Sequence record: SRR20825006_950
Reading direction: 5' to 3' (one strand)
Length of the DNA: 48,094 nt
Part shown: positions 6,701-36,075 of the stretch, in pieces
Position numbering within the stretch: position 1 is the first letter of the stretch
How the letters are laid out: every line of letters starts with the position of its first letter
Translations under genes and position numbers: made by a program
The notes under the pieces: model-generated
What the model was told of the DNA's origin: nothing
What the model saw: the letters and a program-made list of their open reading frames with translations, nothing else
The model's database searches: none

Positions 6701-7674
6701 TCGATGAGCAGACAGTCGTCGACCAGTCTCGTGTGACCCTGCAGCGTTTCTGGGCCGAGACTAGCTACCAGATGCAGGCACGGCGTGATAATCCGGAATG
6801 TGCCAGGCAGGAGTTCGACACCATTCTGGATGAAAACGATCCGGGCATGTTCGCCAAACTGAGCTTTGATGCCGCAGAAAATATCGCTGCACCACTGATA
6901 GTCAGTGGCAAGCGTCCCAAAGTCGCTATCCTGCGCGAGCAGGGTGTGAACGGTCAGGTGGAAATGGCGGCTTCATTCGATCATGCCGGCTTTTGTGCTA
7001 TCGATGTGCATATGAGTGATGTGCTGGAAGGCCGTGTTCAACTGGCCGACTTTGTGGGGCTGGTCGCCTGTGGCGGCTTCTCTTACGGCGACGTCTTGGG
7101 TGCGGGTCGTGGCTGGGCCAGCACGATTCTGCATAATGAGCGTGCCCGCAAGCAGTTTGCTGACTTCTTCCAGCGTGAGGATACCTTTGCACTGGGCGTC
7201 TGTAACGGCTGTCAGATGCTGTCTCAGCTGAAAGAACTGATTCCGGGTAGCGATCACTGGCCGCGTTTCTCTCGCAACCTGTCAGAACAGTTCGAGGCAC
7301 GTTTCTCGCTGGTTGAGGTGCTTGATTCACCGTCCGTTCTGTTGGAGGGAATGGCTGGTTCCATCATGCCGATCGCGGTGGCACATGGTGAGGGCCGGGC
7401 CGATTTCACAGAAACCGGATCCGAATCTCAGGCGATTGCCGCAATGCGCTTTGTCGATCACTATGGAGAAGCCACCGAGACTTATCCATTCAACCCTAAT
7501 GGCTCAAAGAGTGGTCTGACGGCACTGACCACAGAGGATGGTCGTGTCACGATTATGATGCCGCATCCGGAACGGGTAACCCGTGCCGTTCAGCACTCAT
7601 GGCATCCGGATAACTGGAGCAAGGAAGGTCCATGGTCCCGCCTGTTTCAGAATGCCAGACGCTGGGTCGGTTAA
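3790..7674 (+). CDS. purL: Phosphoribosylformylglycinamidine synthase (large-type PurL)
   Basis: 1294 aa. [33 protein letters not shown] and MMPHPER motifs. Confidence 0.99.
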
Positions 7675-7679
7675 AACGA

Positions 7680-9824
7680 ATGATGCCTCGCAGACTTGCC
7701 TTGCGGGGCAGATTGTTTTTCCTGCTGCTACTGCTGTGGGGCGGGTTTGCATTCCACTCTGGCGCAGAGGCTGCCCAGCCGTCGGTTGATCTTGCCGATC
7801 TGAACTGGGAGTACCATTGGGGCGACCTGGCAGTCACCGATGCCGGGTCCGACTTTCCCGCGGATGCTTCACAATGGCAGTCAATTGCCTTTCCGGCCAA
7901 TCCTCCCGGGCGCGATGAACATCAATATGTCTGGTTTCGCGCAGTGTTACCCGAGGCCAATCTGTCTGAGCCGGTCATTTTCATTACCAGTATTAACCTC
8001 AATGTCGAAGCCTATCTCGACGACCAGCTGATTCACCAGTTCGGTGAGCTGGGAGACAACAAAAATCAGCGCTTTATGGGCTGGCCCTGGCACCAGATTA
8101 CGCTGCCCGAAAACTTTGCCGGTAAAACGCTGTATCTCCGTATTTATTCCGATTACACCGATATTGGCTTGTGGGGTGAAGCCAGGCTAATGGAACGCTC
8201 CAATATGCTGCTGCATGTTATCAGCAGTGGCCTGCATGAGTTGATTGTTGCCGCTTTTTCTCTGCTGGTGGCGTTTGTGACGCTGGTGTTTGCCCTGTTT
8301 CGTGGTACCAAAAAAGAATTTTTCTATCTCGGTTTGTTCTCTCTTGCCACAGCGGGTGTGCTTATCGGGGAAAACCTCGCAATACAGCTGGTCATCCAGT
8401 GGCCATTACTGAAAACCTATCTCGCCGCAGTCAGTTACTTCTCGATGCCGATATTCATCGCCATGCTGCTTTATCACTGGCTAAATGGGGCCAAAGGCAG
8501 CCGACTGCTCAAATTTGTGGCTCAGGTGCACCTCGCTTATCTGGCATCGGCAGTATTACTGTCATTGACGGGCGTGGTGAATCTCGCCATCTTTTTCCCG
8601 ATATTTGATGCGCTGTTCGTTGTGTCCTTGCTCATCATGATGCGGGTTGTGCTGCAAATATCGAGACAGGTCAATTACTCCCAGCAACTGGTGTTGGGCG
8701 CATTTGCCGTTTATGCCATCTTTTTACTGGTCGATATGCTGGTGGCACACAGTTTCCTGCCATGGGTCGATTTCCCTATCGCCATAGGCGGTCTATTGTT
8801 TGCTCTGGTGCTGGTGGTGGTTTCGATACGCAGTTATGTGCACACCAATCTGTCGATGGAACAACTGAATCAGCAACTTGAACAACGGGTCACTGAACGC
8901 ACAGCTGAACTGCATGCCTACGTTGAAGCAGAACAACAGCGCCGCAAAGAACTGGAACGGGAAAACCAGTTCAGTGCGGAACTGGAAAAATTCAATGTGG
9001 CGCTGCAATCCTGCCAGGATATTGATGAAGCCAAGGAGCTGATGCGAGGCGGGCTCGCCGCTGTTTTCAGCCCGACCCGGGTTCAGGTGAGTCTGGATGG
9101 CGATACCATCAATACACTACCGGACGCACAAATCCGTTTACAGCAGTTGGAGGGGGGCAGCCAGGTTCTGGCCTCGCTGACACTGGATGGGGGTGATGAG
9201 GCATTACCCAGAGACCGTCTGGAAGACTTCATCCGCCGTGCTTCTCAGCGGCTCACGGTAACACTGGGCAATATCAAGCTGCGCGAGGATTTACAGCGTT
9301 ACTCCTTTGAGGATTCCCTGACCGGTTTACGCAACCGTCGTTTTTTTGATGACGCGCTGGCACGGGATATTCAGCTCGCCAAGCGTAATCAAACCGCTTT
9401 GTCATTGTTGGTTTGCGATATCGATCATTTCAAGCGCTTCAATGATGAGTACGGTCATGATGCCGGCGATGCCGCTTTGCAGGCGGTAGCTGAGACATTG
9501 CAGCAATATTTTCGTGAGAGTGATATACCGTGTCGCTTTGGCGGTGAGGAGTTCGTGGTTTTGATGCGTGATGCCGAAGCTGAAGATGCCAGAGCCAAGG
9601 CGGAAAAGCTCAGAGAGGCTGTGCAGGCGCTGGATATCCACTATCGTGACGAGAAACTCTCACACCTCACCATTTCCATTGGTGTTGCCTCTTTAACTGA
9701 ACAGGACATCGATGCAGAAACGTTGCTACGCCAAGCTGATCAGGCACTGTATGCGGCCAAGCAGGGCGGGCGCAACCAAGTCAAATCTGCTCATGACAGA
9801 ATCAACAGAGAAAATCTGGCCTAA
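7680..9824 (+). CDS. Membrane-bound diguanylate cyclase with 7TM-DISM-like sensor
   Basis: Signal/periplasmic domain, about 7 hydrophobic helices, coiled coil, DSLTGLRNRR, DIDHFK.FND.YGH..GD, RESD I-site and RFGGEEF. ATG 7680 chosen to avoid overlap with purL. Confidence 0.9.
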   Translation: MMPRRLALRGRLFFLLLLLWGGFAFHSGAEAAQPSVDLADLNWEYHWGDLAVTDAGSDFPADASQWQSIAFPANPPGRDEHQYVWFRAVLPEANLSEPVIFITSINLNVEAYLDDQLIHQFGELGDNKNQRFMGWPWHQITLPENFAGKTLYLRIYSDYTDIGLWGEARLMERSNMLLHVISSGLHELIVAAFSLLVAFVTLVFALFRGTKKEFFYLGLFSLATAGVLIGENLAIQLVIQWPLLKTYLAAVSYFSMPIFIAMLLYHWLNGAKGSRLLKFVAQVHLAYLASAVLLSLTGVVNLAIFFPIFDALFVVSLLIMMRVVLQISRQVNYSQQLVLGAFAVYAIFLLVDMLVAHSFLPWVDFPIAIGGLLFALVLVVVSIRSYVHTNLSMEQLNQQLEQRVTERTAELHAYVEAEQQRRKELERENQFSAELEKFNVALQSCQDIDEAKELMRGGLAAVFSPTRVQVSLDGDTINTLPDAQIRLQQLEGGSQVLASLTLDGGDEALPRDRLEDFIRRASQRLTVTLGNIKLREDLQRYSFEDSLTGLRNRRFFDDALARDIQLAKRNQTALSLLVCDIDHFKRFNDEYGHDAGDAALQAVAETLQQYFRESDIPCRFGGEEFVVLMRDAEAEDARAKAEKLREAVQALDIHYRDEKLSHLTISIGVASLTEQDIDAETLLRQADQALYAAKQGGRNQVKSAHDRINRENLA

Positions 9825-12599: not shown

Positions 12600-13892
12600 A
12601 TGAAACCGGCCCAGTTTGATTCCCTCACTCGCTACATCGACATGCTGCTCGATGCGATTTGTGTAGTCGATGATCAAGGCCATTTTCTCTATGTCAGTGC
12701 CGGCGCTGAACGAATCTTTGGCTACAAGGCAGAAGAGATGATAGGCCGTCAGATGCTGGAGATGGTGCATCCGGATGATCGCGAGCGGACCTTGCAAACG
12801 GTCGCTGAAATCATGTCCGGTGTTGCCAAAGTCGATTTTGAGAATCGCTATATCCGTCATGATGGCCGCATAGTCCATCTGCTCTGGTCGGCACGCTGGT
12901 CGGAAGATGATGGTATCCGTGTCGCGGTCGCCCGCGATATTACCCGGCTTAAGCAGACTGAGGCACGGCAGACCGCCCTGATCAGTATTTCCGAAGCAGC
13001 GCATACGGAGCAGAGTCTCAATGATTTATATAAACGTATTCATGACGTCATTGCCGGCCTGATGTCGATGCAGCAATTTGTTATCGGTTTGTTTGATGAA
13101 CAAAGTGCTGTGACCGAACTGGCCTATCAATGTGGCTCAGGCGCTCTCAAAAATCAGGAAAAAGTGCTGGAAACGCTCTGCAGCCAGGTGGCGAGAAGAG
13201 GAGAGAGCTGGCCGAAATCGGAATGGGAAAAAACAGCCGTGCCGGGCTGGCTGGCTGTGCCACTGAAATCTCAGGATGGCATTGTCGGCGCGCTGATGGT
13301 GAAAACGGACGCCGATAACAAAGCAGACAATGTCGATGAAAGGGAACTGCTGGAATTTGTCTCTACCCAGATTGCGGCGGCGATAATGCGCCGGAAAATG
13401 CTGGAAAGCCTGCATCAGCTGGCGATGTTTGATCAACTCACCGGTCTCCCCAACCGGCGGCTTTTCCATGACCGTTTTCAGCAGGTACTGGCACGGGCCA
13501 AACGCAATCAGGAAAGCTTCGCATTGCTATACCTTGATCTGGATAAATTCAAACAGGCGAACGATCATTTCGGTCATGAAGCCGGGGACTGTATATTGCG
13601 GCAAACCGCCCAAAGGCTGAACACCTGCCTGCGTGATACGGATACGGTCGCCAGATTGGGCGGTGACGAATTTGTGATGATTCTGGATTGTATCGACCCA
13701 AAAAATGTTCAGGAGGTCGTCGATAAAGTCAGGGCTGAGCTCTCACTGCCTTATCAGCTCGACGATACCATGCTGGGCATGTCAGCCAGTATCGGGGTGG
13801 CCTGCTTTCCTGAGCACGGCGAGACACAAAAGGCGCTGCTGCAGCAGGCGGATAGTGATATGTACCGGGTTAAGCGCGCTGGTCGGCATTAA
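12600..13892 (+). CDS. PAS-GAF-GGDEF diguanylate cyclase
   Basis: PAS (VHPDDR), GAF-like (WLAVPL...G.VGAL), DQLTGLPNRR, RDTD I-site and RLGGDEF. Confidence 0.92.
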   Translation: MKPAQFDSLTRYIDMLLDAICVVDDQGHFLYVSAGAERIFGYKAEEMIGRQMLEMVHPDDRERTLQTVAEIMSGVAKVDFENRYIRHDGRIVHLLWSARWSEDDGIRVAVARDITRLKQTEARQTALISISEAAHTEQSLNDLYKRIHDVIAGLMSMQQFVIGLFDEQSAVTELAYQCGSGALKNQEKVLETLCSQVARRGESWPKSEWEKTAVPGWLAVPLKSQDGIVGALMVKTDADNKADNVDERELLEFVSTQIAAAIMRRKMLESLHQLAMFDQLTGLPNRRLFHDRFQQVLARAKRNQESFALLYLDLDKFKQANDHFGHEAGDCILRQTAQRLNTCLRDTDTVARLGGDEFVMILDCIDPKNVQEVVDKVRAELSLPYQLDDTMLGMSASIGVACFPEHGETQKALLQQADSDMYRVKRAGRH

Positions 13893-20113: not shown

Positions 20114-20539
20114 GTGACTGAGTTCTATAGTGAAGTCAGGCTGGTACATATGCTGATGGCATTGGCCAGCGGCAGCCTGTTATTCATCCATGGGCTTATT
20201 CCGATGCGTCACTCCGTTGGTTTGTTTTCCCAGTCGTTGCGCTATCTGCGATATGGTGTTGATAGCATCTTGATCACAGCGGCACTGATGCTCACCAATA
20301 TCGTGCAGCAATATCCGTTTATTAACAGCTGGCTCAGTGTGAAATTTGTGTTGCTGATGGTTTATCTCAGTCTCGGACAGATCCTGTTCTACACCGCACG
20401 ATCCGGTCAGCAACGCTTTATAGCCTGGCTGCTGGCATTAATTACCCTGCTGTATATTTTCAGCGTGGCAACAACGCAGCATGAGTGGGGTGTTTTCAGC
20501 CTCGGTCTTGGTTATGCTGGTGATATCAAAGCCAGTTAA
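20114..20539 (+). CDS. SirB2-family membrane protein
   Basis: H.....S..L, VDSIL..AA...L, WL.VK...L.VY..LG pattern. Four hydrophobic segments. Confidence 0.8.
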   Translation: MTEFYSEVRLVHMLMALASGSLLFIHGLIPMRHSVGLFSQSLRYLRYGVDSILITAALMLTNIVQQYPFINSWLSVKFVLLMVYLSLGQILFYTARSGQQRFIAWLLALITLLYIFSVATTQHEWGVFSLGLGYAGDIKAS

Positions 20540-20550
20540 ACAGGACAGCT

Positions 20551-21027
20551 ATGTCGACTTTAGTCGTGCAAATTGTTATCCAGCAATGGGATAAAGGGCA
20601 ACGTTCAGAGGCGGATATCAAAGACCGGGCAGAGCAGCCGGATCGCTATCCAGTCAACGACCCCAACGCCCATTATTTGTTTGATCATCAGGTTGTGTTC
20701 GATCAGCACGGTGATGATCTGATGGGCAATCGTGTCCACTATGAACTCAGTGATGACGGTGGCTTCATTATTGACCGCTTTCGTTTTGACCTGAATCGCA
20801 AACTGCTTGAATACATTGCCCAGCCGGATTCCATGTTACCGACAGAGCCGGTTGCTGATCTCAGCGATGGCTGGGTGCAGTGCCGTTATCAATGGCGTTA
20901 TAAAGTTTATGAGGGTGGCTTTTATTACTGGCTTTATGAGGCGATTACCGTCAATGCCGGTTTCGTAGAGAGTGTGACCGAGGATGTATTCACCGGCTCG
21001 GAACCGGCCGTGGTATTTGAGCCTTGA
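20551..21027 (+). CDS. Hypothetical protein
   Basis: 158-aa ORF with AGGA RBS, followed by a terminator. No family recognised. Confidence 0.7.
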   Translation: MSTLVVQIVIQQWDKGQRSEADIKDRAEQPDRYPVNDPNAHYLFDHQVVFDQHGDDLMGNRVHYELSDDGGFIIDRFRFDLNRKLLEYIAQPDSMLPTEPVADLSDGWVQCRYQWRYKVYEGGFYYWLYEAITVNAGFVESVTEDVFTGSEPAVVFEP

Positions 21028-21032
21028 GCAAT

Positions 21033-21065
21033 AAAAAAGAACCGGCCAGTGGGCCGGTTCTTTCT
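21033..21065. terminator. Bidirectional Rho-independent terminator
   Basis: aaaaaagaaccggcc-agtg-ggccggttctttct between convergent genes. Confidence 0.85.
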
Positions 21066-21077
21066 GTTTGACCAGGC

Positions 21078-21593
21078 TTACTTAATCACACCACAGGCAA
21101 GGCGGGCACCGCCGCCACCTAATGGCTTGGGATGATCTGAATAGTTATCGCCATTCATATGAACCATTAAAGACCGGTTTCTGATTTCCTTCAGCGTCAG
21201 CTTAGGTGCCAGTACCGGTTGTGTAGCCATACCATTTTTATCAACGTACAAGGCCGGTAAATCGCCGGCATGACCATGTAGATCCCAGGGTTCAGCATGG
21301 CGACCGGTATTTGCCGGATCAAAGTGACTGCCTGCGGAGCCACCGGGTACCATTTCACCGTTCTTTTGTTTGGGGCCGCAGGACGCAACTTCATGCACGT
21401 GGAAACCATGGTTACCTGTCGACAGGTTACGCATATCAGGTGTGAAGACGGTACCGAAAGGGTGCTGGCTGATAGTCACGGTGCCTGCCGGTTCACCGGT
21501 CTGCAGGTTGTTCATATTGACCGTGATTGAATCAGCAGCGAAAGCACTGGAAGTCAGAAATAGCGACGAGAGTAGGGCGAGTTTTAGCTTCAT
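21078..21593 (-). CDS. sodC: Periplasmic Cu/Zn superoxide dismutase
   Basis: HGFHVHE, AGSHFDP, GHAGDLP, SLMVH..GDNYSD.P.PLGGGGARLACGV. Signal peptide from ATG 21593. Confidence 0.96.
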   Translation of the reverse strand: MKLKLALLSSLFLTSSAFAADSITVNMNNLQTGEPAGTVTISQHPFGTVFTPDMRNLSTGNHGFHVHEVASCGPKQKNGEMVPGGSAGSHFDPANTGRHAEPWDLHGHAGDLPALYVDKNGMATQPVLAPKLTLKEIRNRSLMVHMNGDNYSDHPKPLGGGGARLACGVIK

Positions 21594-21740
21594 ACTACCT
21601 CCTTTTTTATGAGTCATTTCAGGTTACTAATCTGGACTCTGTGAAAAGAGAGATGTTCCTGTCAGCCTGCCCGGGCAGCAAACACAATCCCCCGTCAAAT
21701 AAGGGGGTTAAAGGGCTTTTTTGCAATGTTAGGGTTTTAA

Positions 21741-21888
21741 TCAGGCAGGCAAGAGCGGTCATCGATGATTCATGGATGACCGTTGTTCCATTATTCACTT
21801 GGAGTGACTGGACTTACTCTTACTGTCTGTCTTGATAGATCTTTCAGGTAAGGCCAGTCACTCATAGAAGTTGAAAAGGAGCCTAAAC
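21741..21888 (+). ncRNA. Putative structured 5' leader RNA, copy 1 (motif not recognised)
   Basis: Stems 21754-63/21775-84 and 21802-11/21854-63. Homologous to 22856-23004 with compensatory substitutions. Confidence 0.65.
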
Positions 21889-22299
21889 ATGAAATTTCTG
21901 AATCAACAGAATACTCACTTCAAAAAGACCACATTGGCTCTGGGGCTGATGTTTGCCCTGGGTAGTGGCAGTGCTTTTGCCAATACGTTTTCCGAAGTCG
22001 ATGCAAACGACAATGGCAAAATTTCCAAGCAGGAATATCAGAACTACGTCGATGACAGCGGTCTGTTTGCTGACTGGGATGAAAACGAAGACGATCGCCT
22101 GGATAAAAACGAATGGGAGCAGGCTGACAGAAAGGCCAGACATTTCGACAAGTGGGACAGTGATAACAATGGCTATATCTCAAAGGATGAGTTTAATGAA
22201 GCCAGCTTCAGCAAGTATGACCAGGATGACGATGACTTCTGGGATGTCTCAGAATGGGATGAAAACATCGCAGCCTGGTTTGATGATGTTTTCAGCTAA
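21889..22299 (+). CDS. Secreted protein with four EF-hand loops, paralog 1
   Basis: AAGGAG RBS and ATG 21889. Signal peptide ending SAFA. Loops DANDNGKISKQE, DENEDDRLDKNE, DSDNNGYISKDE, DQDDDDFWDVSE. Confidence 0.88.
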   Translation: MKFLNQQNTHFKKTTLALGLMFALGSGSAFANTFSEVDANDNGKISKQEYQNYVDDSGLFADWDENEDDRLDKNEWEQADRKARHFDKWDSDNNGYISKDEFNEASFSKYDQDDDDFWDVSEWDENIAAWFDDVFS

Positions 22300-22328
22300 T
22301 CACTGGCTTTAAAAATGGCTTACGAGCT

Positions 22329-22359
22329 AAAAAGCCCGGCTTTTTGCCGGGCTTTTTTT
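22329..22359. terminator. Bidirectional Rho-independent terminator
   Basis: aaaaagcccggc-ttttt-gccgggcttttttt. Confidence 0.9.
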
Positions 22360-22422
22360 GTCAGTCATCAAGCACTATCAGGCGTTACGCCCCAAACCAT
22401 TCAGGCTGGATTTCGTCTTACC

Positions 22423-22671
22423 TCAGTTACTGCATTGGTACGGACTCTCCGTGTCATACTCTTCCCCCGTTTTAGCATCGACAATTGTCACGGTTGCCCC
22501 CGGATGAGCTTCGCATAAAGCGTTTCTGGCAGGGTAGATGCCAGAACCCTGGGCCATGACAGCAGTGGGCACAGGTGTGCCGTCAGAACGGGTGGCCGTG
22601 ATCGTGTAGTTCCCGTTGGTAGACACACAGGCTGAGATGAACACGGCTGATAATAAAATGAGGTGCTTCAT
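22423..22671 (-). CDS. Small hypothetical lipoprotein
   Basis: AAGGAG RBS. MKHLILLSAVFISAC lipobox-like signal. 82 aa. Confidence 0.75.
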   Translation of the reverse strand: MKHLILLSAVFISACVSTNGNYTITATRSDGTPVPTAVMAQGSGIYPARNALCEAHPGATVTIVDAKTGEEYDTESPYQCSN

Positions 22672-22855
22672 CGGCTCTCCTTACGAGCAATACTTATCAA
22701 AGGCTTTTTCAATATAAAACCTGATAGCTTAAATAAGCACAAAAATCCAAATTGAGAATTTAACGCTTCCAAACTAACTATCCGGTTTTAAAAAAATCAG
22801 TCCACCCCTCAACTAAGGGGGGGGATAATATTTTTTGGCAATGTTACGGTGAGAG

Positions 22856-23004
22856 TCAGGCAGGCAAAAGCGATTGTAAATTCAATGATTTATAATCGTT
22901 GTTCCATTATTCACTTAGAGTGATTGGACTTACTTTAACTGTCTGTCTTGATAGAACTTTCAGCTAAGGCTAATCACTCATTGGAGTTGAAAAGGAGCCT
23001 AATC
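22856..23004 (+). ncRNA. Putative structured 5' leader RNA, copy 2 (motif not recognised)
   Basis: Stems 22869-81/22888-900 and 22918-27/22970-79. Single-stranded blocks identical to copy 1. Confidence 0.65.
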
Positions 23005-23418
23005 ATGAAATGTCTTCATTCCGAAATTATGCTGTTCAGAAAGGCGTCGCTGATGATATTCAGCATGATGCTCGCGGTGGGAAATGGAATCGCGCTGGCG
23101 GAAAATCCATACTCATCATTAGATTCAGATCAGGATGGACAGATTTCCCAGCCGGAATATAACAGCTACATGGAAGATGACACACGCAGATATGAAGGTT
23201 GGGATCAAAATAATGATAGCCGCATTGATGAAAATGAATGGATTGATGCCTATCCCGGGGAGCGAGGTGATTTCAACAGCTGGGACAGAAATCAGGATAG
23301 TTATCTCGACAATAATGAGCTTAACGACGGCAGCTTCAACAGTTATGACAGAGATAATGACGGTCTCTGGAATGAGGATGAAGTCGGCAGTGCCGCGGAA
23401 GATGGCTTGTTAGACTAA
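23005..23418 (+). CDS. Secreted protein with four EF-hand loops, paralog 2
   Basis: AAGGAG RBS and ATG 23005. Signal peptide ending IALA. Loops DSDQDGQISQPE, DQNNDSRIDENE, DRNQDSYLDNNE, DRDNDGLWNEDE. Confidence 0.88.
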   Translation: MKCLHSEIMLFRKASLMIFSMMLAVGNGIALAENPYSSLDSDQDGQISQPEYNSYMEDDTRRYEGWDQNNDSRIDENEWIDAYPGERGDFNSWDRNQDSYLDNNELNDGSFNSYDRDNDGLWNEDEVGSAAEDGLLD

Positions 23419-23439
23419 TTTGTAACGGATGATTTTCTG

Positions 23440-23462
23440 AAAGCCCGGCAGGCCGGGCTTTT
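23440..23462. terminator. Rho-independent terminator
   Basis: aaagcccggc-ag-gccgggctttt, same stem as 22329-22359. Confidence 0.85.
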
Positions 23463-23527
23463 ATTAAACTCAACCAGTCGCCTGGTTTGAATGCCATAAA
23501 ATTCAACAACTCCCCTGACCAGCAATA

Positions 23528-23555
23528 TTAGGTTTCGCGCTATAACCCAAGCTAC
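23528..23555 (-). repeat. Degenerate GTAG-type REP
   Basis: Minus strand reads gtagcttgggttatagcgcgaaacctaa (GTAG tag plus imperfect hairpin). Confidence 0.55.
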
Positions 23556-23567
23556 AAGTTGTCAGCG

Positions 23568-24053
23568 TTAACCTCTGAGCGCGGCCTCAATCGTGGCAAT
23601 ATCAATTTTCCGCATCTGCATCATGGCGTCAAACGCCCGTTTGGCAGCCGCAGGGTCGGGGTCAATGATGGCTTCTGACAACACGACAGGGGTTATTTGC
23701 CAGGACAGCCCCCATTTATCTTTACACCAGCCACAGGCGCTTTCCTGACCACCATTGTTTACAATCGCATTCCAGTAACGATCGGTTTCCGGCTGGTCAT
23801 ACGTGGCCACCTGAAATGAAAAAGCCTCGTCGTGACTGAAGGCAGGGCCGCCATTCAAGCCGAGGCAGGGAATTCCCATCACGGTGAACTCAACCGTGAT
23901 GACATCACCCTGTTTGCCTGAGGGGTAGTCGCCAGGTGCCTTATGCACCGCGTCCACAGAAGAGTCGGGGAAAGTCCCGGCATAAAATCGTGCAGCCTCT
24001 TCGGCATCCCCATTGAACCAGAGGCAGACTCTGTTTTTGGCGGGTGTAGTCAT
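23568..24053 (-). CDS. VOC family protein (PhnB / 3-demethylubiquinone-9 methyltransferase-like)
   Basis: CLWFNGDAEEAARFY, LNGGP.F...EAFSFQV, CGWCKDKWGLSWQI. Confidence 0.92.
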   Translation of the reverse strand: MTTPAKNRVCLWFNGDAEEAARFYAGTFPDSSVDAVHKAPGDYPSGKQGDVITVEFTVMGIPCLGLNGGPAFSHDEAFSFQVATYDQPETDRYWNAIVNNGGQESACGWCKDKWGLSWQITPVVLSEAIIDPDPAAAKRAFDAMMQMRKIDIATIEAALRG

Positions 24054-24221
24054 GGTGATTCCTCCTTATCTCTTTGATCCTGCTTAGGTTTGATCGTCAG
24101 TTGCGACAACTTTACACTACAGATATGAACAGCCGATGCAATTATTTTGTGGAGGCTGACTTCAAATTTTGCCCGGACTCGCGGGTGGTTCATCAGGCAT
24201 TCACTTTATTAGGAGGACACT

Positions 24222-24935
24222 ATGATCAACCTATATAGCTGGAGCACGCCTAACGGACAAAAAGCCTCAATCATGCTGGAAGAGCTGCAGCTGGATTATT
24301 GCGTAACAGCCGTGAATATCGGCAAAGGGGAACAGCATCACCCGGAATTTCGACGGATAAGTCCGAATGGAAAGATTCCGGCCATCACAGACCAGGACCT
24401 GAAAAATGAAGCAGGCGAGCCCGTCAGGATCTTCGAGTCCGGCAATATTCTGATCTATCTGGCGGAGAAGTCAGGCCGATTATTGCCATCCCGGTGGGAA
24501 GACAGAGCGGAGGTGCTGGCTTGGGTATTCTTTCAGGTGGGTCATCTCGGTCCCATGGTCGGTCAATGGCATTGGTTTGACGACATTGCCCCTGCTCAAA
24601 GTGAATTGGCGATAAAACGCTATCGGGAAGAAACGCTGCATCTGCTAGAGGTGCTTAATGGCCGACTGGGTGAAGCGCCTTATCTGGGCGGCGTGGATTA
24701 CAGTATTGCCGACATTGCCAATTACACTTGGGCAAAATCAGCAGTAGAGCAAATGAAAGACGAGGAAGCGGATGCTATCGCCACGCTGGAATCATTACAT
24801 GACTGGCTACAGCGTGTAGGCTCGCGACCGGCAGTACAACGCGGTATGAATATTCCCTCTGAGGAGCAGAAAGAGCGGGCAGCGAAGGCAGAACCGATTC
24901 CCGGCCCTGCAGGCGGCGGAACGGTTCTTCCCTGA
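24222..24935 (+). CDS. Glutathione S-transferase family protein (YfcG-like)
   Basis: TPNGQK, SPNGKIPAI, FESGNILIYLAEKSG, YSIADIA. Confidence 0.93.
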   Translation: MINLYSWSTPNGQKASIMLEELQLDYCVTAVNIGKGEQHHPEFRRISPNGKIPAITDQDLKNEAGEPVRIFESGNILIYLAEKSGRLLPSRWEDRAEVLAWVFFQVGHLGPMVGQWHWFDDIAPAQSELAIKRYREETLHLLEVLNGRLGEAPYLGGVDYSIADIANYTWAKSAVEQMKDEEADAIATLESLHDWLQRVGSRPAVQRGMNIPSEEQKERAAKAEPIPGPAGGGTVLP

Positions 24936-28076: not shown

Positions 28077-29906
28077 TCACCGAGCGTAGCAGCTTGAGAT
28101 ATCCGGCCATTGATCGGTCTTAATGGTCGTGTAGTGATTCCAGAACGCATTGTCTATGGCCTTCAATTGGGCGGGCGTCGTATCGCGACGGTATCGAGCC
28201 AGGTGTCCCGGACCGCCGTTATAAGCGGCATAGGTTGCCTTTATCAAATTGTCATCACCGCCGGGCTGCTCGTGCTCGCCCAGCCGGATCGCATAATCAA
28301 CCAGGTAATGGGTCAGAATATCGATACCGGCATTCACATTGTAGTCGACCTCATTAACGAGACGATCCAGATCGTAGACCTTGCGCCAGACCCGGCCGTT
28401 GATTTGCATCATGCCCACAGCGCCACCGGCGGAACGCAACACTTCCGGCGGACTACTTGAACCCGCGAAATGACGCCAGCAGGATTCTTTCCAGGCTGTG
28501 GCACGAACCAGCGGATCGAGCCGCTCTGTCAGTCTGTCCGGCAGGCTGTTGTTTTTGTCCAGCCAGGCGCTGGCCTGTTCCTCCAGCAAACGGGCGACCA
28601 GCTCAAGGTAAGCATCAAGGTTATCCAACTGCGGGACCAGTCCCTTTAAAGCCTCGGCCGGGGTGATGCTGTCGGCATGCGCGGCTGGTAACAGCCAGGA
28701 GCCAACCCGGCCAAAACCGCCGGCGATTTGTTGGGTCAACGCGACGGTTGTGAATTCGGCCTTGTCCTGGCTGTTAAAACCGAACAAATCGCGAAACTCC
28801 GGGTCGACTTCCAGCGGTAAGGGTGTAAAACTCGGCGGCACCGATTCGGCTAACAGCAAGCGGGCAAGCCTGCGTAGCCCGTCACGCGTGATTTCCAGAC
28901 CATATTCCGGCCCCAGGGCATCAAGTGCCCGTAGTGCGTCACCACCGGCCAGAAACGCGGCAAGCCGGAAGTCTACTTCCAAACCCGGCGTCTCCAGACC
29001 TTCAAGTATGCCCATCAGCGGCCGCAAGCGATCCCATGTGGTCAGGAACAGTGCTCGAACCGGATCATGTTCGGGATCATCGATTGTCAGTGCCTCGGCA
29101 ATCGCGTGTCTCGCATCCAGCAACACGGCGAATAACTCAAGCCGCAAGGCACGGGAATCCGTAGATTGGGCCAGACTCATAATGATGGTGGTCAGAAAGC
29201 CGTCTAACTCGTCTTCAAGCGTTTGCCATTCAGCCAGTTCACTAGCGTCCAGAATCGGCTCGGGTCCCAGTTCGACAGGTTCAGGAGGGCGAACCTGAAA
29301 AGCCAGCCAGGCTCTGACGCCGGTTTCTTCAGTTTGGATGCGGGTAATGTGGGTTCGCTCCACCAGGGATGGCTCAGCATCCGGACCCAGCAATTGTTCG
29401 ATCAACTCATCCAGACTGTTAAGTGGACCGGCCAGGTCAACTTTGACGCTTTTCATGCGTGGCAGCACCAGTGCATCGGTAATGATCTGAACGGGTTTGC
29501 TCAAAAGGGCGGGGCTATTATCCGGGCGCGATAAGATAATCGAATCAGGCACAAATTCAATCGCCAGTCCCGATTCTGTCACCTGCGGGGTCAGTTTCAA
29601 TGCAAGACGGCCCTGCCACGGTTTCGGACCCCGGCAGACACCGAGTAAATGGGCCCCCGTCGTGGCAGTCAATGCCATGTCGACAGACAGTTGGGCATCC
29701 TCGGTCACCACCTGCACATCGGACAACTCAAGCTGGTTGCAAAGATCGTTGCGAAGCGTGCTCTGCCCATTCTCATCGAGTTCAAGGACACGACTGATCG
29801 CAGACTGCAGATGAGCCGTTTCAGCCAGCAAAAGGATTTCAACTTCGTCCGCAGATAATGCGTTCGAACTGAACAAGATGAAAAGCAGCCATCCAATGTG
29901 CTTCAT
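28077..29906 (-). CDS. Secreted protein with C-terminal lytic transglycosylase (SLT) domain
   Basis: Signal peptide. ATAWKESCW (catalytic E-S), GAVGMMQIN and AAYNGGPG SLT motifs. Confidence 0.85.
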   Translation of the reverse strand: MKHIGWLLFILFSSNALSADEVEILLLAETAHLQSAISRVLELDENGQSTLRNDLCNQLELSDVQVVTEDAQLSVDMALTATTGAHLLGVCRGPKPWQGRLALKLTPQVTESGLAIEFVPDSIILSRPDNSPALLSKPVQIITDALVLPRMKSVKVDLAGPLNSLDELIEQLLGPDAEPSLVERTHITRIQTEETGVRAWLAFQVRPPEPVELGPEPILDASELAEWQTLEDELDGFLTTIIMSLAQSTDSRALRLELFAVLLDARHAIAEALTIDDPEHDPVRALFLTTWDRLRPLMGILEGLETPGLEVDFRLAAFLAGGDALRALDALGPEYGLEITRDGLRRLARLLLAESVPPSFTPLPLEVDPEFRDLFGFNSQDKAEFTTVALTQQIAGGFGRVGSWLLPAAHADSITPAEALKGLVPQLDNLDAYLELVARLLEEQASAWLDKNNSLPDRLTERLDPLVRATAWKESCWRHFAGSSSPPEVLRSAGGAVGMMQINGRVWRKVYDLDRLVNEVDYNVNAGIDILTHYLVDYAIRLGEHEQPGGDDNLIKATYAAYNGGPGHLARYRRDTTPAQLKAIDNAFWNHYTTIKTDQWPDISSCYAR

Positions 29907-33955: not shown

Positions 33956-34051
33956 GAGCGGGATAAAACCTGAGTGTGGGATGGGATATAGCGTTTATTG
34001 TGCCAGATGACGCTTGTGTAAAAAACGGCTTTTGATTTACCATGCCAGTCA

Positions 34052-34140
34052 CTTGTCGGGGTGCCCGAGCGAAATGTTTCGCAGAGGCTGAGATGAAACC
34101 CGTTGAACCTGAAGAAGTTAAGACTTCCGTAGGAAACAAG
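34052..34140 (+). ncRNA. TPP (THI-box) riboswitch
   Basis: P1 cttgt/acaag, ggggtgc...gctgaga...acccgttgaacctga...cgtagga. Directly upstream of thiC. Confidence 0.95.
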
Positions 34141-34173
34141 CAGGATAACTGCAAACACCCTGGGTGTATCTAA

Positions 34174-36075
<1,902 letters not shown>

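Follow-up and report, generated by a model that had tools for sequence, protein, structure and literature searches.

The window analyzed here, a stretch of 48,094 nucleotides (nt) from sequence record SRR20825006_950, holds two paralogous genes for EF-hand proteins, each preceded by a copy of the same leader of about 150 nt (21741-21888, copy A, and 22856-23004, copy B). This arrangement raises the question of what keeps the leaders so similar in front of coding regions that have diverged. The original prediction, made from the sequence alone, took the leaders for a structured RNA that would regulate the genes behind it. Based on a comparison of the leaders with each other and with their relatives, we regard them as a real candidate for an uncatalogued structured cis-regulatory RNA of narrow range, which, as far as sequence can tell, most likely acts in cis on translation.

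When the two copies were aligned over the 300 bases ending at the start codons, the leaders agreed at 124 of 149 positions (83%) from the conserved 5' block to the ATG, whereas the encoded proteins share 38% identity (48/126, BLASTP) and the third codon positions of the genes 52%, which bears out the claim that the leaders are better conserved than the coding regions. Upstream of the promoter, from -150 to -26, identity between the copies falls to 47%, about what unrelated sequences would show. Across ortholog and paralog pairs, identity ranges over 0.73-0.89 for the leaders, 0.48-0.69 for third codon positions and 0.42-0.59 for upstream DNA. The duplicated homology begins at about 21689 and 22803, becomes near-continuous from 21723 and 22839 on, and upstream of the leaders takes in a promoter-like motif and a C5/G5 hairpin. 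The blocks TCAGGCAGGCAA, GTTCCATTATTCACTT and ACTGTCTGTCTTGATAGA, described earlier as invariant, are indeed the same in both copies, and the fold ends as predicted about 12 nt before the ribosome-binding site, with stem 2 closing at 21863 and AAGGAG beginning at 21876. Contigs from four DNA runs hardly differ from the window, the one change being a G>C at 22496, outside the leaders; none of the 21 sequencing runs listed for the locus is of RNA.

The expectation that the leaders belong to no known Rfam family also held, as neither has an Rfam 15 match even at E ≤ 10. A scan of 20500-24500 at this threshold, with models including those for cyclic di-GMP (c-di-GMP-I/II), M-box, yybP-ykoY, NiCo, ROSE, fourU and thiamine pyrophosphate (TPP), gave 26 weak matches, none of which overlaps 21741-21891 or 22856-23007.

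Relatives of the leaders were sought by pattern and by covariance model. When 185,579 species genomes were scanned for a two-block pattern, two records came up, L001 and L002, both metagenome-assembled genomes of uncultured Methylophaga; L001 has one leader copy, and L002 has two pattern matches and a third, diverged copy seen on reading. A looser pattern run over a metagenome collection gave seven loci: L010 and L014 are new variants, L012 and L015 are identical to L002, and L011, L013 and L016, which have only the pattern in common, were dropped as chance matches. A covariance model built from nine leaders (R1) matched 4 of 83 genomes of the family, namely G001 with five copies within 15 kb, G002 and G059 with one copy each, and G076 with one diverged copy; a second model built from all 13 rows (R2) found the same four among 90 genomes of the order and nothing further. 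Two other candidates were set aside. L021 in G063, an AT-rich weak match to the covariance model (E 0.17 / 0.0045, 22.8 bits), is absent with R2 and was not counted, and L009 in G026, found by leader BLAST (E 0.0016), lies within apparent coding sequence, is recovered by neither covariance model and was dropped as a chance hit. Overall, 12 distinct leader copies are at hand, from the four order genomes, the window and two metagenome contigs.

All 12 copies end at the Shine-Dalgarno sequence and ATG of a signal-peptide EF-hand gene, and the consistent placement directly 5' of one gene family that a cis-acting element should show is therefore seen throughout. The models match nowhere else in the 83 family and 90 order genomes. 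A miniature inverted-repeat transposable element or other dispersed repeat can be dismissed, because the copies are confined to the 5' ends of EF-hand genes (5/5 model matches in G001 and 2/2 in the window). A third occurrence of CTGTCTGTC in the window (29682-29690, minus strand) lies inside a 609-codon open reading frame (ORF) and is attributed to chance.

The EF-hand family reaches further than the leader. Homologs of the proteins occur in 8 of the 83 family genomes; with filters off, no leader was detected upstream of the distant homologs (29-35% identity) in G053, G054, G056 and G074, nor upstream of the sixth EF-hand gene of G001, which carries six such genes within about 16 kb, five of them with a leader. 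In a sample of 400 genomes of the class the protein profile matched 25, and R2, again with filters off, found no leader at 24 EF-hand loci from 22 other gammaproteobacterial genomes (G384 left out). The leader RNA is thus real and recurrent but, on present sequences, confined to a small Methylophaga subclade; only EF-hand paralogs follow it, and recurrence across lineages beside functionally linked but different genes was not found. One G001 paralog is a fused, double-length form (244 aa, L002 2257-2973). About 100 nt upstream of the distant EF-hand homologs in G054, G056 and G053 (L032, L033 and L034, respectively) stands a different conserved segment, CAATCTTATAAATATTTCACYTTTCC, which includes UUUCC and may represent another kind of leader for this gene family, unrelated to the first; G053 keeps a ATGTTAGGGTGA promoter motif.

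The original prediction had also read two covarying stems from the two window copies. Stem 1 (P1) is AGCGGTCATC/GATGACCGTT in copy A and AGCGATTGTA/TATAATCGTT in copy B, with three compensatory double changes and one A-U to G-U change, and stem 2 (P2) is GAGTGACTGG/CCAGTCACTC in copy A and GAGTGATTGG/CTAATCACTC in copy B, with one double change and one G-C to G-U change, exactly as had been described. Both leaders are more stable than their dinucleotide shuffles (z = -5.10 for copy A and -4.15 for copy B, with 0/200 shuffles as stable), and RNAalifold applied to MAFFT alignments recovered P1, P2 and a GUUCC:GGAGC helix. In the model-fitted alignment of the 12 copies, 89.3% of 450 cells are paired against 83.7 ± 0.7% in shuffles, changes on both sides occur in 14 of 38 pairs (P1 6/9, outer P2 4/11, inner P2 3/4), none of 500 shuffles attains any of five measures, and sliding the partner by 1-3 columns lowers pairing to 35-43%. 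An alignment of this kind leans toward structure, and the count was repeated on a structure-blind MAFFT alignment of the same 12 copies. There, 86.3% of cells are paired against 82.3 ± 0.8% (0/500 shuffles), 11 pairs are changed on both sides (attained by 14/500), with 17 such cells (0/500), and the covariation score is 0.271 against 0.216 (0/500); the number of further pair types, 36 against 33.2, is not significant (68/500). Changes on both sides affect 3 of 9 pairs in P1 and 6 of 15 in the outer and inner helices of P2, where 91.5% of cells are paired. P1 and P2 therefore covary across the 12 copies, and the claim of covariation stands for both stems. A local hairpin inside the P2 loop is not conserved across the copies.

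The fold can be assigned to a strand. G-U pairs are frequent in both stems, and the covariance model gives the sense leaders 175 and 162 bits but their reverse strands 27 and 22; together these results indicate that the fold belongs to the sense RNA, and an antisense RNA was rejected. The same evidence bears on the idea that conservation acts on the DNA, through operators downstream of the promoter or gene conversion between paralogs, with an incidental RNA fold. The promoter region and the upstream C5/G5 hairpin are conserved too, and the L001 leader is closer to the A-type leaders (0.86-0.88) than to copy B, its positional counterpart (0.78), copy B being the most diverged of the b-type leaders. 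However, P1 and P2 stay paired through compensatory changes, and on the opposite strand or in a cruciform each G-U pair would turn into an A-C mismatch. The P1 hairpin also recurs at one and the same place with loops of varying length and at least six stem sequences that are unrelated to one another. The differences between leaders are dispersed in a stem-preserving pattern and do not form conversion tracts, on which ground gene conversion was rejected, and we give a DNA-level explanation hardly any credence.

In 7 of the 12 copies a motif TGnTAnnnT precedes the 5' block by 6-7 nt; in L002c the match is only degenerate. Among its variants (TACGGT, TAGTGT, TAGCGT and TAGCTT) the TG, the TA and the last T never change and the three bases in the middle do, the pattern by which an extended -10 element is recognized. 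The spacing of this motif would place the start of transcription at the 5' end of the leader (Table 1), consistent with the earlier assumption that the leader lies downstream of the start site, and the conserved 5' block would then be the first bases of the mRNA. Each window gene is followed by a terminator-like hairpin of its own, so the units are probably monocistronic; weak terminator-type Rfam look-alikes gather at the hairpin behind gene A. Between about 35 and 55 nt upstream of the probable start, 4 of the 12 copies (A, B, L001 and L002b) have a hairpin of the C5-N8/9-G5 type, followed by a good T run in copy B only, which could be a regulator site or an insulating terminator.

Two familiar ways in which a leader may act were tried and rejected. 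A leader peptide is not general, as a 19-codon ORF (MTVVPLF...) is open in only 3 of 5 b-type copies, namely copy A, L002b and L001; copy B lacks the ATG and has a TAG, L002c lacks the ATG, and the insertions and deletions in the P1 loop are not multiples of three. Control by termination was rejected because no U tract follows P1 or P2.

How, then, might such an RNA act on its gene? We propose, with about even confidence for and against, that the leader is the transcribed 5' untranslated region (UTR) of a monocistronic EF-hand gene, that it forms an uncatalogued cis-regulatory family, and that a competition between pairings gates translation. From the extended -10 promoter, the RNA would start at the conserved 5' block and fold into the P1 hairpin, a conserved linker and the long P2 hairpin with its conserved apical loop. 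The 5' block, through CAGGCAGGCAA, could pair with CUGUCUGUC of the P2 loop to form a pseudoknot, or alternatively, through GG..AA, with UUGUUCC of the linker, extending P1; the UUCC of the linker is itself complementary to GGAG of the Shine-Dalgarno sequence. With the pseudoknot formed, the linker would be free to pair with the ribosome-binding site and translation would be low, and with the pseudoknot open, the 5' block would hold the anti-Shine-Dalgarno segment and translation would be high. An ion, a small ligand, a protein, a small RNA or temperature could tip this balance. The pseudoknot, the switch and its direction are what we infer from the sequences as follows.

Positions 3-11 of the 5' block form nine contiguous pairs, two of them G-U, with ACUGUCUGUCU of the P2 loop, and this match is kept in 8/8 copies with intact genes. 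Its changes are one-sided (G-U to A-U, C-G to U-G and A-U to G-U), with no true compensation. Of the earlier suggestion that the 5' block pairs within the stem-2 loop, the complementarity thus stands, while covariation lends no backing to the pseudoknot. The second partner is likewise available in 8/8 intact-gene copies, in which G8 G9 and A11 A12 of the 5' block can pair with U46 U47 C48 C49 of the linker. The GUUCC:GGAGC helix of the RNAalifold consensus is 93% paired across copies, without covariation, and in b-type copies the whole linker GUUCCAUUAUUCA matches UGAAAAGGAGC over 11 bp with two bulges in a constrained fold. Plain folding of copy A pairs G138 and G139 of the Shine-Dalgarno sequence with C49 and C48 at a probability of 0.70, and the plain-folding ensemble is split between the pairing options. 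We mimicked the pseudoknot by making the 5' block and the loop unavailable and reading the mean pairing probability of GGAG. This value became 1.00 in 5/5 b-type leaders, compared with 0.38-0.81 when the loop alone was blocked, and it rose from 0.01 to 0.44 in L024 and from 0.78 to 0.88 in L002a.

Several points weigh against this proposal. The 12 copies come from about six genomes and include several paralogs, and with a sample so small and closely related the shuffle controls overstate significance. The complementarity of 5' block and loop is by itself only 1-5% unlikely per sequence; for the two window copies, 60-62 of 2000 mononucleotide shuffles of the downstream sequence match it. Both sides of the pseudoknot and of the anti-Shine-Dalgarno helix are nearly invariant, and for that reason neither has compensatory changes. 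The pseudoknot mimic is crude, being limited to nested folding, and it leaves L025 (0.50 to 0.50), L008 and L020 unchanged; the a-type leaders L024 and L025 put the Shine-Dalgarno sequence into a small local hairpin. In unconstrained folds of copy A, the nested alternative is far less stable than the P2 fold (-44.3 against -58.5 kcal/mol), and the same holds for L002c. The start of transcription, and transcription of the leader itself, are read from promoter-like sequence. Finally, four copies lack the 5' block (L008, L010, L014 and L020), three of them in front of truncated or in-frame-stop genes. The genes behind L008 (in G059), L010 (in a metagenome relative) and L020 (in G076) are all cut short at the third EF loop, about 101-103 codons in. 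Behind L008 and L010 the frame is lost there; behind L020 the old frame continues past two in-frame TGA codons, and the contig of L014 ends before the state of its gene can be read. The copies without a 5' block look like decaying loci and weigh little against the pseudoknot. The break point of the EF-hand gene is the same in two diverged lineages (L008 1630-2079; L010, minus strand; L020 1054-1503, minus strand).

The folding energies bear on whether the leader switches at all. A simple two-state bistability between P2 and a nested helix of 5' block and loop was rejected: the energies are close in only 4/8 a- and b-type copies, and the large gap in copy A and L002c means that it is not general. 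The leader might instead be a constitutive element that sets a fixed low translation or serves as an mRNA stability or processing site for co-duplicated genes. In those two copies the P2 fold is much more stable than any other state, structured 5' ends stabilize bacterial mRNAs, and promoter, leader and gene duplicate as one unit, all of which would suit such an element. We nevertheless hold it to be improbable, as it leaves unexplained the strict conservation of three mutually complementary single-stranded blocks and the capacity of the 5' block to pair with two partners, and alternative folds lie within about 1-5 kcal/mol in copy B, L001, L002a and L024.

The near-invariance of the P2 loop admits another explanation, in which CUGUCUGUC is the site where a factor acting in trans (an RNA-binding protein or small RNA) docks, and the 5' block only competes with it internally. 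The loop block is the most conserved element of the leader, it survives in L008, L010 and L014 after loss of the 5' block, and the two sides, being invariant instead of covarying, seem to be constrained by more than their pairing with each other. However, the genes behind copies that have kept the loop but not the 5' block are truncated, so these copies may simply be decaying. Additionally, the complement of the loop, RGACAGACAG, is not enriched in G001, G002, G059 and G076 (17, 12, 16 and 21 occurrences against 20, 19, 18 and 22 for the reversed control), and there are no CsrA-type sites with GGA in a loop. A trans-acting factor is therefore unlikely in our view.

Both window proteins match Pfam EF-hand models. 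The EF loops of the gene A product span D38-E49, D64-E75, D90-E101 and D111-E122, with spacers of 14, 14 and 9 residues. According to a review, lanmodulin has spacers of 12-13 residues, typical EF-hand proteins have spacers of about 25, and lanmodulin is further marked by proline at EF loop position 2 (PMC11845868). We judged gene A to have the short-spacer, four-EF-hand arrangement of lanmodulin; position 2 of its loops is A, E, S and Q, and neither window protein has the proline there. An AlphaFold2 model of the gene A protein, from an alignment of 12 sequences, reached a predicted local distance difference test score of 75.8 and a predicted template-modeling (TM) score of 0.65, with the signal peptide disordered. 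Its top Foldseek match in the PDB is 8fns, lanmodulin with neodymium, at E 1.4e-4 (TM score 0.52 by query and 0.64 by target; root-mean-square deviation 3.5 Å over 103 columns; 25% identity), and further lanmodulin entries, 8dq2, 8fnr and 6mi5, rank 7, 9 and 12. Similarity to lanmodulin at the sequence level is not significant (E 0.08-0.11). The downstream proteins thus appear to resemble lanmodulin in predicted fold, being small and secreted with four EF-hand loops and short spacers.

These genes invite the reading that the leader is a true riboswitch, in which P1, P2 and the pseudoknot together form an aptamer whose ligand, a small molecule or a metal ion (Ca2+, a lanthanide or Mg2+), stabilizes the pseudoknot on binding and so sets the access of ribosomes. 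A covarying structured domain in the 5' UTR is what riboswitches have in common, and here P1 and P2 precede the gene in 12/12 copies; conserved unpaired blocks beside covarying stems, the proposed pseudoknot and a predicted platform that sequesters the Shine-Dalgarno sequence are riboswitch-like as well, and neither a protein-coding nor a repeat explanation fits. The secreted proteins have four EF hands and find their best structural match in a lanthanide-bound lanmodulin, and the host genus is methylotrophic. Against this, the leader serves one paralogous gene family in one small clade and is absent beside distant EF-hand homologs, whereas known riboswitch classes are usually broad and have transporter or biosynthesis genes among their targets as well. 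An RNA would sense conditions in the cytoplasm, while the proteins work in the periplasm, and the literature on lanmodulin or Methylophaga riboswitches yielded no Ca2+ or lanthanide riboswitch. On balance a riboswitch seems doubtful. Ca2+ or a lanthanide as the ligand is a guess, lent indirect color by the lanmodulin-like predicted fold. In its boldest form the idea would make the leader the first RNA to sense calcium or rare-earth ions, with a pseudoknot that is set by the metal and tunes lanmodulin-like periplasmic proteins in marine methylotrophs; this is less likely still.

In kind, the leader is a candidate cis-regulatory 5' leader RNA, and known systems of this sort show where it is ordinary and where it differs. 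Like the SAM-II and preQ1-II riboswitches, it is a compact 5' UTR with a hairpin-loop pseudoknot, here a proposed one, and would act through ribosome access and not termination; in contrast to them, it matches no Rfam model in sequence or structure, its proposed pseudoknot partner is the extreme 5' end of the RNA, and its Shine-Dalgarno sequence would be hidden by a separate linker and not by the pseudoknot itself. Like the M-box (Mg2+), yybP-ykoY (Mn2+) and NiCo riboswitches, it would control proteins that handle metals, and its proposed pseudoknot could plausibly be favored when cations compact the RNA. However, none of these matches the leader even at E ≤ 10, its architecture is two hairpins with a proposed pseudoknot and not a multi-helix junction, and its genes encode only secreted binding proteins and no transporters. 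The ROSE and fourU RNA thermometers likewise pair a pyrimidine stretch with the Shine-Dalgarno sequence, and UUCC:GGAG pairing is predicted here, but a thermometer works without conserved distal loops or a 5' partner, none of the Rfam thermometer models matches the leader, and the class of the downstream genes, which are neither heat-shock nor virulence genes, does not fit.

We found no paper joining a lanmodulin-type or EF-hand gene to an RNA leader, although supplementary tables could list further RNA elements. For one strain, c-di-GMP, TPP, cobalamin and S-adenosylmethionine (SAM) riboswitches have been listed, none of them beside EF-hand genes (PMC12530212). If regulatory, the leader adds an uncatalogued RNA family and gives a switch design testable by mutation, in which one 5' segment has two alternative partners. 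The larger interest probably lies in its targets, paralogous secreted four-EF-hand proteins with a predicted fold closest to lanmodulin, in a methanol-using genus. To our knowledge, regulation of lanthanide-handling proteins has been described only at the level of transcription factors; an RNA layer over lanmodulin-type genes would be new, and a metal-responsive one, if true, a first.

Table 1. Features of the two leader units and their EF-hand genes, in window coordinates.
Feature	Position	Strand	Basis or remark
C5-N9-G5 hairpin, copy A	21689..21707	+	sequence reading, simple scan; putative regulator site
Extended -10 motif TGTTAGGGT, copy A	21727..21735	+	probable start ~21742-21743
5' block TCAGGCAGGCAA, copy A	21741..21752	+	complementary to P2 loop and, via GG..AA, to UUGUUCC linker
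P1 hairpin, copy A	21754..21784	+	variable loop, covarying stem
Linker GUUCCAUUAUUCACUUG, copy A	21785..21801	+	GUUCC 21785-21789, proposed anti-Shine-Dalgarno
P2 long hairpin, copy A	21802..21863	+	fold, alignment covariation
Apical block ACUGUCUGUCUUGAUAGA in P2 loop, copy A	21822..21839	+	conserved; proposed partner of 5' block
Shine-Dalgarno AAGGAG, copy A	21876..21881	+	ATG at 21889
Gene A, 136 aa, signal peptide, four EF-hand loops	21889..22299	+	predicted lanmodulin-like fold
Terminator-like GC hairpin and T run behind gene A	22331..22360	+	sequence reading; not flagged by a simple scan
C4-6/G hairpin upstream of copy B promoter	22805..22824	+	simple scan, copy alignment
Extended -10 motif TGTTACGGT, copy B	22842..22850	+	probable start ~22857
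5' block TCAGGCAGGCAA, copy B	22856..22867	+	identity with copy A
P1 hairpin, copy B	22869..22900	+	three compensatory changes relative to copy A
Linker, copy B	22901..22917	+	GUUCC 22901-22905, proposed anti-Shine-Dalgarno
P2 hairpin, copy B	22918..22979	+	fold, covariation
Conserved P2 loop block, copy B	22938..22955	+	identity across copies
Shine-Dalgarno AAGGAG, copy B	22992..22997	+	ATG at 23005
Gene B, 137 aa, signal-peptide EF-hand protein, paralog of gene A (38%)	23005..23418	+	Pfam, BLASTP

The genes in the neighborhood of the two units include those for NorB, SirB-like, SodC, PhnB-like and GST-like proteins, and no methanol-dehydrogenase or lanthanide-uptake genes were found among the neighborhood genes scanned. 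About 8-14 kb upstream are two GGDEF diguanylate cyclase genes (7632-9824 and 12600-13892), one of which also has PAS and GAF domains; no link between them and the leader was found. Between the EF-hand units, an 82-aa ORF on the minus strand (22423-22671) has a lipoprotein-like signal, with a cysteine after a hydrophobic stretch, and no Pfam match, and it is conserved in L001 and L002. The sole match in an Rfam scan of the whole window at gathering scores is a TPP riboswitch (RF00059) at 34047-34152 on the plus strand, unrelated to the leaders, which scores 62.9 bits against a gathering score of 54.3 and stands ahead of a 606-codon ORF (34255-36075).

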